A stretch of DNA of 38,184 nt from the IMG/VR virus record IMGVR_UViG_2531839529_000007; one strand, 5' to 3'. The stretch comes from a virus (lineage: Duplodnaviria > Heunggongvirae > Uroviricota > Caudoviricetes). The notes under the pieces were generated by a model that was not told where the DNA came from, ran no database searches, and saw nothing but the letters and a program-made list of their open reading frames with translations. The position numbers were made by a program, and so were the translations under genes. Positions 36,776 to 38,184 of the stretch are shown in pieces. The number at the start of each line of letters is the position of its first letter. The stretch's first letter is position 1.

Positions 36776-37191
36776 ATTATAGATTTTACCGTATTTCGGC
36801 ATGAATGAAACTGAATATCCTCCCACCGACCCTCCATGACTTTACACCACTGTCTCTGGGGCTGCTATGTGCCAAAAGCGGACATAACGACACGTTAGTT
36901 AGAAATCTCAAGACCAATTAGGTTGGATACTTACATGTATACTATTGCCTAACGATACTACCCTATCAACCTCATGGTTTATAGGCGGGGGTGAGAGCCA
37001 ATCGAACGCTATCGTACGTTTTTATGCTGTCTACCCTAGACCCCAAGTAGACATGAATCTTACCTGATTTCCATACGAGGGCGACGTTGATCATCCAGCT
37101 TTAGTGCGAGCACTGAACTTAACATTTACCAGCAATAGTGATATTTTCTACAAAGAAAAATATATGGAATAACGTCATCGCGGGTACAAAA

Positions 37192-38184
37192 ATGACTATA
37201 AAAAAAACATATGTAACACCAACAGAAATAGTGAAATATTTTTATGACAAACCGGAAAACGATAACGTAAAAGAGAGAAAAACAATTGAGAGCCTGACCC
37301 GTCTCAAACCTGAGTGGGAAAATACTCTCGATATGATGAAGTTAATACGCAATTGTGAAAAGCTAGCAACTGAAGGTATTTTAATGGAATTGTCTTCAGG
37401 ACATACTCTTTTTGACCGTTGCTATTTCGCACCGAATTTCAATGAATCAGATGCGAAATATGGAAAGTATGATTTTATAGCTGATGGATTTGAGTCAATC
37501 ATAGACCGCCTTAGTCCTTCCGTTTTACCTGTTGTTGTTGAAAAAAGTGATGGTTCACATGATCTTGGTACTAGTTTTATTGTTGGGAATAACCACACGA
37601 TATTTACAGCCAGACATGTTATTGAAGACATGAAGAGTATCAGGATACTTAGAGCTGGTGGTGAGGCTTTACCAATACATAAAATCTTTGTATCTAACGA
37701 TGAACGTATTGATATCGCTTTAGTTTTCACAACCATTCCGAATGAAGATAATATTCAACCACTTAAGGTCTCAACCAAAGCCTCGGTACTGGATGAAATT
37801 TTATCAATAGGATTTCCACCCATTCCAGGATTTGATGCATTAAAGTTATATGACGTTTCGCATATAAATTCGTTTGTCCGACTGTCAAAGGGGCGAATTG
37901 TTGGTTCTGGTCACTCTTACTTAGATTCACAAGACTTTTTATTATTCAATGCTAGGGTTAAGGGGGGGAATAGCGGTGGCCCTATAATTAACAAATACGG
38001 CCTTGTTGTTGGTATGCTTGTACAAATACCAATATCATCTGAGGACAGTTCAAAGATTGATAACCTTGGATATGGTATAGCTGTAACAGGAAAAAGCCTG
38101 CTGGATGCCATTACATTTACAGAAAATGGCCGCGAATTAACACTCACCGACCGAGGAAATGGAGAATATTCAACTCTAGCATAA
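37192..38184 (+). CDS. Trypsin-fold (S1) serine protease with N-terminal domain of unknown function
   Basis: C-terminal half carries a His/Asp/Ser triad in canonical order (TARHV ... IDIALV ... GNSGGP); the roughly 150-aa N-terminal region is unrecognised. Start taken at the first in-frame ATG (37192; the track begins at GTG 37138). Low-GC DNA; ends at the last base of the window. Confidence 0.75.
   Translation: MTIKKTYVTPTEIVKYFYDKPENDNVKERKTIESLTRLKPEWENTLDMMKLIRNCEKLATEGILMELSSGHTLFDRCYFAPNFNESDAKYGKYDFIADGFESIIDRLSPSVLPVVVEKSDGSHDLGTSFIVGNNHTIFTARHVIEDMKSIRILRAGGEALPIHKIFVSNDERIDIALVFTTIPNEDNIQPLKVSTKASVLDEILSIGFPPIPGFDALKLYDVSHINSFVRLSKGRIVGSGHSYLDSQDFLLFNARVKGGNSGGPIINKYGLVVGMLVQIPISSEDSSKIDNLGYGIAVTGKSLLDAITFTENGRELTLTDRGNGEYSTLA

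Follow-up and report, generated by a model that had tools for sequence, protein, structure and literature searches.

A winged-helix S1 protease at the cargo end of an Escherichia coli thrW prophage: a candidate for a minimal protease-based defence

The DNA stretch analysed here (38,184 nucleotides of an IMG/VR virus record, referred to as the window) ends with a gene for a protein of 330 amino acids, in which a winged-helix domain precedes a trypsin-like serine protease domain. The family defined by this architecture, for which we use the term WH-S1, is real, intact, well defined and rare, and we consider it a reasonable candidate for a minimal protease-based defence. The circumstantial evidence leaves about an even chance that this self-contained, cytoplasmic and regulated protease works as a one-gene anti-phage module, either by abortive infection or by superinfection exclusion. 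A defence protease had already been proposed for this position in the first-pass annotation. An intact cytoplasmic S1 enzyme was indeed found among defence genes, and for the function itself we infer from genomic context.

The gene and its two-domain product

The coding sequence of the WH-S1 protease (37192-38184, plus strand) is complete. It starts with an ATG at position 37192, comprises 330 codons and is closed by a TAA (38182-38184). The product is identical to RefSeq entry WP_000152898.1, which carries the name 'S1 family peptidase' and for which the same ATG is used in genomes with 100% identity to the window over positions 36500-38184. Since RefSeq uses this ATG and close homologues begin there, we accepted it as the start codon; a longer alternative beginning with GTG 37138 is possible. 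WP_000152898.1 is also a full-length match to PHROG 18002, a family of unknown function. The GC content of the reading frame is 37.2% compared with 54.7% in the structural region of the prophage (window positions 12000-30000), and this difference bears out the markedly AT-rich composition noted before. A sigma-70-like promoter candidate (37119-37147, plus strand; TTAACA-17-TATTTT with an extended TG, a consensus match only) is located 45 nt before the ATG, inside the only upstream stretch (from about 37084) that is conserved between genera.

As had been recorded previously, the reading frame ends with the last base of the window. This coincidence is probably an artefact of prophage boundary calling, since several E. 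coli prophage calls in IMG/VR (L059, L060, L064, L067) stop directly after the protease gene. In this database, ten E. coli prophage calls carry the identical gene and several of them finish right behind it.

The protease domain covers residues 111-330 (37522-38181, plus strand). Pfam Trypsin_2 matched residues 126-275 with an E-value of 1.5e-17 (65.1 bits, cut-off 27.6), and Pfam Trypsin scored 31.9 bits against a cut-off of 20.6. The catalytic residues are His142 in FTARHV (codon 37615-37617), Asp174 in IDIALV (37711-37713) and Ser261 in GGNSGGP (37972-37974). When 53 family members with identities down to 26% were aligned, all three residues were invariant in every one of them. The AlphaFold2 model of the full-length protein, which was calculated with the family alignment, reached a pLDDT of 86.8 and a pTM of 0.86. 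In a Foldseek comparison its double beta-barrel matched DegP, DegS and DegQ with E-values of about 1e-13, and the family profile matched MarP and Deg2 at about 1e-14. Thus, profile score, order of the triad and fold identify the protein as a PA-clan S1 serine peptidase and, as judged from its sequence, the protease is catalytically intact. These data substantiate the trypsin-fold protease previously called at the window edge, including the triad motifs quoted for it. The only segment modelled with low confidence (residues 212-227) directly follows a nearly invariant GYPPIPGF motif, and, judged from its place in the alignment, it would correspond to the regulatory LD and L3 loops of HtrA proteases.

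A simple hydrophobicity count gave no indication of a signal peptide or membrane anchor, with at most four hydrophobic residues per 12-residue window in the first 45 amino acids. Pfam searches of the 330 residues detected no PDZ domain, and the chain ends about 50 residues past the protease core. Nor was a reverse transcriptase (RVT) domain matched by Pfam in this protein. Since a hydrophobic N-terminus and a PDZ domain are both missing, the protease is predicted to be cytoplasmic. An ordinary secreted or housekeeping protease with signal peptide and PDZ domains had been named as the finding that would speak against a defence role, and both features are absent.

The first-pass annotation had described an unrecognised N-terminal part of roughly 150 residues. 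This part turned out to be shorter (about 110-118 residues) and its structure was predicted with confidence (pLDDT 89). The N-terminal domain (residues 1-110; 37192-37521, plus strand) consists of a winged-helix core, which is built from four helices (10-18, 32-36, 40-45, 48-60) and a hairpin (65-68/77-80), followed by three linker helices (residues 85-110) bearing a conserved YGxYDF..GF motif. In the predicted model the winged helix is packed against the protease domain.

When we searched 1.84 billion representative proteins by phmmer with the N-terminal domain as query, 41 proteins were retrieved, and apart from one weak repetitive match all of them were collinear winged-helix protease proteins or fragments thereof. 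A profile of the domain matched only three fragments in a set of 5.8 billion proteins, an outcome that carries no weight here. By sequence, the winged-helix domain is specific for this family and is found solely ahead of this protease. The proposal that the N-terminal part is a sensor-like module shuffled between effectors was therefore rejected, as the phmmer search recovered only the winged-helix protease architecture. Likewise, no match to a known non-defence family, which had been put forward as evidence against a defence role, was obtained; the fold is that of a generic winged helix. We also considered a DNA-binding winged helix, and this assignment was not supported by the median net charge of the domain (-1.3) or by its third helix, which is neither basic nor conserved. 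Since the domain is neutral to acidic, it is more likely to bind protein than DNA.

The thrW locus and its cargo slot

The window begins with proA, which is followed by the gene for tRNA-Thr(CGU), thrW (1369-1444). The stretch is thus the E. coli thrW locus and not the ssrA locus. Behind thrW lies a prophage with integrase, terminase, portal, an S78 prohead protease, capsid, and a Mu-type tail and baseplate. The S78 enzyme (16404-17090) is encoded between portal and capsid, and the S1 gene is located 20 kb away from it at the cargo end of the element. As the prophage is already equipped with this S78 enzyme, a role of the S1 enzyme as prohead or head-maturation protease was excluded.

The prophage also has an invertible tail-fibre region with pinE. 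Opposed genes for tail fibres and tail-fibre assembly proteins (30274-33002) lie here beside a pinE/Hin-type invertase (32448-33002), and this arrangement indicates host-range switching in the prophage. A group II intron is found inside the prophage at 7130-8743 (minus strand). It carries an open reading frame for a reverse transcriptase/maturase of 507 residues (7220-8743; RVT_1 and GIIM domains), directly downstream of which Rfam detected the Intron_gpII domain (7130-7216, 64.9 bits).

The accessory genes at the right end of the prophage comprise a PD-T4-3 GIY-YIG gene (33061-33885, minus strand; PADLOC 8e-140), an HTH/ImmA pair and a gene for a BRO-N protein. The HTH gene (35062-35439) and the gene for the ImmA/M78 peptidase (34525-35058), both on the minus strand, score as a capH/capP pair. 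PD-T4-3 lies downstream of this pair on the same strand, with two small open reading frames (34256-34399 and 34389-34538) in between, and a damage-responsive switch of the CapH/CapP type may control it.

To the left of the protease gene there is a displaced copy of the ssrA 3' end with its downstream region (36506-36701, minus strand), which is composed of the 3' end proper (36674-36701) and the terminator region (36506-36673). Over positions 36506-36698 the identity with the 3' end and downstream terminator region of the native ssrA gene amounts to 94%, and Rfam detects the tmRNA 3' end in this remnant. The tmRNA fragment reported earlier at this junction is thus present, but it measures about 195 nt instead of 28 nt and the locus in which it lies is thrW. 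On its left side, the cargo slot with the protease gene is bounded by the ssrA block. This block looks like a relic attR junction of an ssrA-integrating element and could still be usable as a secondary att site.

The ssrA block is followed by a non-coding spacer (36702-37118), which is kept only among E. coli variants of the thrW locus and in part in strain EC0026B. A non-coding gap of about 500 bp had been noted in front of the protease gene. This value fits the distance from the ssrA fragment to the ATG (490 bp), whereas the distance from the stop codon of the BRO-N gene (36507) is 684 bp. With permissive Rfam thresholds, a search for a non-coding RNA partner yielded only the ssrA remnant and sub-threshold noise.

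The slot is occupied differently among strains. In strains ET490 and ET670 an IS3 element sits in the upstream spacer, and the protease gene is intact. The sequence of strain CP66-6 is homologous to the window from position 36660 onwards; to the left of this point it has different genes, for a DUF4236 protein and a DUF2971 protein scoring as PDC-S31, and on the right side a PDC-S64-like gene and a P4-like remnant carrying a reverse transcriptase follow. Strain EC0026B has the same ssrA-derived block with a type II restriction-modification (RM) system before it and a different gene after it. These variants fit the pattern of a cargo or hot-spot position that exchanges single genes. The gene occupying the slot in EC0026B (7510-8475 of the extracted locus L057) codes for a protein of 321 residues (WP_000049501.1), which had no Pfam or PADLOC match. 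Lying beside the type II RM system, this gene is a further candidate for a cargo or defence function.

We followed the DNA beyond the end of the window in the complete genome of strain W12-1, which carries the identical sequence (locus L001). Here, the protease gene is followed by about 650 bp in which no open reading frame exceeds 56 residues, and beyond them the 3' end of thrW recurs as a perfect repeat of 47 nt. At this repeat a P4-like satellite is integrated in tandem (L001 17333-29239), which includes genes for integrase, psu, delta and sid and a pseudogene of the alpha primase. Its hot spot between integrase and psu harbours a complete Gabija system (GajA 1e-253, GajB 1e-228), and the satellite is closed by a partial thrW repeat of 29 nt before a yagP fragment and paoD. 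Since the 650 bp are poor in open reading frames and are followed by a thrW repeat and a separate satellite, the first integrated element ends with the protease gene, which lies beside the attR of this element. Partner genes, which had been suspected out of view past the end of the window, do not exist there, as no open reading frame of at least 60 residues precedes the att repeat and the satellite.

Distribution of the family and possible functions

When grouped at 90% identity, the family members in the set of 5.8 billion proteins form about 78 clusters, nearly all of 320-360 residues. Among 5426 complete E. coli genomes the gene was found in 27 (0.5%). Other carriers are IncF plasmids of Klebsiella, Pseudomonas islands, Nitrospina, many Bacteroidota, Nostoc, Microcoleus, and metagenome-assembled genomes (MAGs) of an Opitutia and an alphaproteobacterial species. 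Neither the 50,697 GenBank phages nor the BFVD structures contained a full-length relative. On a metagenomic phage contig of 44 kb we detected a member with 31% identity (L070, 7917-8960), which is encoded on the strand opposite to its neighbours. These neighbours are terminase, HNH and DNA-modification genes, a PAPS reductase and a glucosyltransferase-like gene. Because of this member, phages unrelated to the E. coli prophage are also carriers of the family.

For a comparison of gene neighbourhoods we used 45 loci from Proteobacteria, Bacteroidota, Cyanobacteria, Nitrospinota and Verrucomicrobiota. All-against-all BLASTP of 459 flanking open reading frames from these loci revealed no family that recurs in more than three of them, and the families common to up to three loci were integrases, transposases or RM enzymes. 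A type II toxin-antitoxin partner was not found, as the small flanking reading frames are not conserved. At the DNA level, conservation between genera (E. coli, the Klebsiella plasmid and locus L007) is confined to the gene with about 100 nt upstream and about 50 nt downstream. Since no neighbour family recurs and the conserved DNA is limited to the gene and its short flanks, the protease gene is a one-gene mobile unit.

Defence genes are frequent among the neighbours. In E. coli these are PD-T4-3, the capH/capP-like pair, Gabija in the adjacent satellite, PDC-S31, PDC-S64 and a reverse transcriptase. When PADLOC was applied to the 150 nearest flanking proteins of 40 loci, we obtained strong matches to pAgo with TIR-APAZ, QatA, DRT2, AbiEii, PglZ, type II RM systems and several PDC candidates. 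Pfam searches of the flanking proteins added HipA, Mrr and an nSTAND3 protein. A type IIG RM enzyme is encoded in three loci, and an LmuB-like ATPase and a DpdF-like helicase in one locus each; AbiU2-HEPN, DUF4238 and Fic proteins are encoded nearby in Pseudomonas. In several loci, such as those of Nitrospina and of an Algibacter MAG, the protease gene lies between housekeeping genes. As raw neighbour tallies, these data are suggestive of an enrichment of family members beside defence genes. The LmuB-like protein is an SMC ATPase of 838 residues (PADLOC 3e-29), which is encoded together with a 61-residue reading frame behind the family member (L012, 7001-10763). Its gene is convergent with the family member at a gap of 65 nt, and the surroundings code for a TPR-CHAT protein and a Ser/Thr kinase. 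This locus is a dense candidate defence island.

If the WH-S1 protein acts as an anti-phage module, the winged-helix domain and the conserved GYPPIPGF loop would hold the protease off in uninfected cells. Phage infection, that is, a phage protein or an infection-induced change, would then release or oligomerise the protease, and the freed enzyme would cut essential host or phage proteins so that phage multiplication stops. By analogy with the allosteric activation of HtrA proteases, domain and loop may well form the switch. In a more specific version, to which we give somewhat less than even credence, the polypeptide is an immune protein in itself: the winged helix directly recognises a phage protein and releases the HtrA-like protease, and the infection is aborted. 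Such a minimal sensor-protease would need no partner nuclease, NTPase or signalling molecule, and it would have been spread by prophages, plasmids and satellite-rich islands over at least five bacterial phyla. Against the sensor reading stands the fact that the winged helix is common to no other effector, so that the usual argument from modularity is missing.

The protease might instead serve the mobile element. As a moron, it might cleave host proteins in the course of takeover, lysogenic conversion or counter-defence, the last for instance through loss of a host immune protein, or it might process a regulator of its own element. Lysogenic-conversion genes are typically located where this gene lies, at the attR cargo end of a prophage, PHROG 18002 is a phage/prophage family, and the distant member on the phage contig lies beside terminase, HNH and DNA-modification genes. 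However, many members reside in chromosomes or plasmids with no phage genes nearby, the prophage already owns the S78 head protease and the ImmA/HTH regulatory pair, and the E. coli locus L002 retains the gene even though its prophage is largely deleted. On balance we regard a role in the service of the element as rather unlikely. The recurrence on prophages, plasmids and islands, together with an atypical GC content and an extremely patchy distribution (0.5% of the E. coli genomes; 41 clusters among 1.8 billion representatives), argues against an ordinary cytoplasmic quality-control or regulatory protease that is mobile by chance and plays no part in conflicts with phages or mobile elements. 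An enzyme of this kind would account for the HtrA/MarP-like sequence and fold and for those loci that are embedded among housekeeping genes, but the PDZ domain and the export signal that define housekeeping HtrA proteins are missing, and we consider this explanation very improbable.

Alternatively, the protease may be one half of a split system, in which a toxin-like or pro-effector-activating protease works with a host protein or with an unlinked gene product, for instance an antitoxin or a gated effector of the MBL nuclease kind. This arrangement is suggested by the best PADLOC matches, which are protease modules working with a separately encoded MBL pro-nuclease (PMC12799240), and by the one locus with the convergent LmuB-like ATPase directly downstream. 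On the other hand, no neighbour family recurs in the 45 loci and the transferred unit is a single gene. Moreover, a trypsin-MBL protease of the known type forms one polypeptide with a core immune protein, and its MBL gene immediately precedes it (PMC12799240); the WH-S1 protein shows neither feature. A split system thus appears improbable.

If the preferred reading of a one-gene anti-phage module is correct, a protein of 330 residues that both senses and executes would be among the smallest protease-based defences. It would offer a tractable system for substrates of defence proteases and for an HtrA-type switch rewired with a winged helix, and the gene would also be useful for locating the cargo slot that lies at the thrW/ssrA prophage ends in E. 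coli. Should the gene have no function in defence, it codes for an ordinary accessory protease.

Comparison with known proteases

The HtrA-type S1C proteases (DegP, DegQ, DegS) and MarP (Rv3671c) were the best sequence and structure matches, and they share with the WH-S1 protein the fold, the His-Asp-Ser order and the GNSGGP motif. HtrA proteases are held inactive and are allosterically switched on through an accessory domain and sensor loops. In contrast to these enzymes, which have a signal peptide or anchor and C-terminal PDZ domains, the WH-S1 protein has neither and carries an N-terminal winged helix instead. Moreover, HtrA genes are core envelope housekeeping genes, whereas the WH-S1 protein has 330 residues, is predicted to be cytoplasmic, and its gene is rare and mobile. 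The NCBIfam models for HtrA and MarP scored only 20-46 bits compared with cut-offs of at least 400 (46 against 416). Since PDZ domain and export signal are absent and these scores are far under the cut-offs, the WH-S1 protein is not a canonical HtrA. Its protease domain is equally close to housekeeping HtrA/MarP proteins and to defence proteases.

Bacterial immunity increasingly turns out to employ protease effectors, among them gasdermin activators, Craspase and trypsin-MBL pairs. To our knowledge, all characterised immune proteases of the trypsin type either form a fusion with a larger sensor and a pro-effector or cooperate with them. The trypsin-MBL systems (Hachiman HamMAB, Avs2, the Lamassu LmuA-protease and the RT-protease of retron type XI/DRT) resemble the WH-S1 protein in their trypsin-like domain, which is an infection-triggered effector or activator, and in their setting in defence islands or on mobile elements. 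When we compared the protein with PADLOC-DB v2.0.0, no model was matched over its full length and the matches were confined to the generic protease domain. Partial matches to this domain were obtained with RT-Protease_XI (5e-13), LmuA (3e-10) and HamA1 (1.6e-7). For the RT-protease the match is limited to profile positions 340-486 of 506, which is the protease part. The proteases of the trypsin-MBL systems are part of a core immune protein (HamA as partner of a helicase, an Avs STAND protein, LmuA as partner of an SMC protein, or RT) and activate an MBL pro-nuclease encoded directly upstream (PMC12799240). Unlike these pairs, the WH-S1 protein has no fusion partner except for the winged helix of 110 residues and no adjacent MBL gene; upstream of it the window contains non-coding DNA and then the BRO-N gene. 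As for Lamassu, the cognate LmuB is absent beside the E. coli gene, and only one of the 45 loci has an LmuB-like gene, in convergent orientation.

PADLOC also contains candidate single-gene proteases (PDC-S45), so that other lone trypsin-like genes have already been flagged in defence islands. The profiles of PDC-S45 and PDC-M35A matched the start of our protease domain weakly (E-values of 7e-4 and 4e-7) over some 45-50 residues. They lack the winged helix and do not represent the same family. The family was neither described nor tested in the literature we consulted, which included the DefensePredictor paper with its supplements, the paper on the defence-island repertoire of E. coli and the paper on the PD systems.

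Lit of prophage e14 is a zinc metalloprotease that cleaves EF-Tu upon encounter with the Gol peptide of phage T4. Catalytic class and fold are unrelated to those of the WH-S1 protein and there is no sequence similarity, so that the analogy is purely functional. Like the WH-S1 gene, lit is a single gene borne by a prophage, and the logic that we propose here would be alike: a latent protease, a phage product as trigger and an essential host protein as target.
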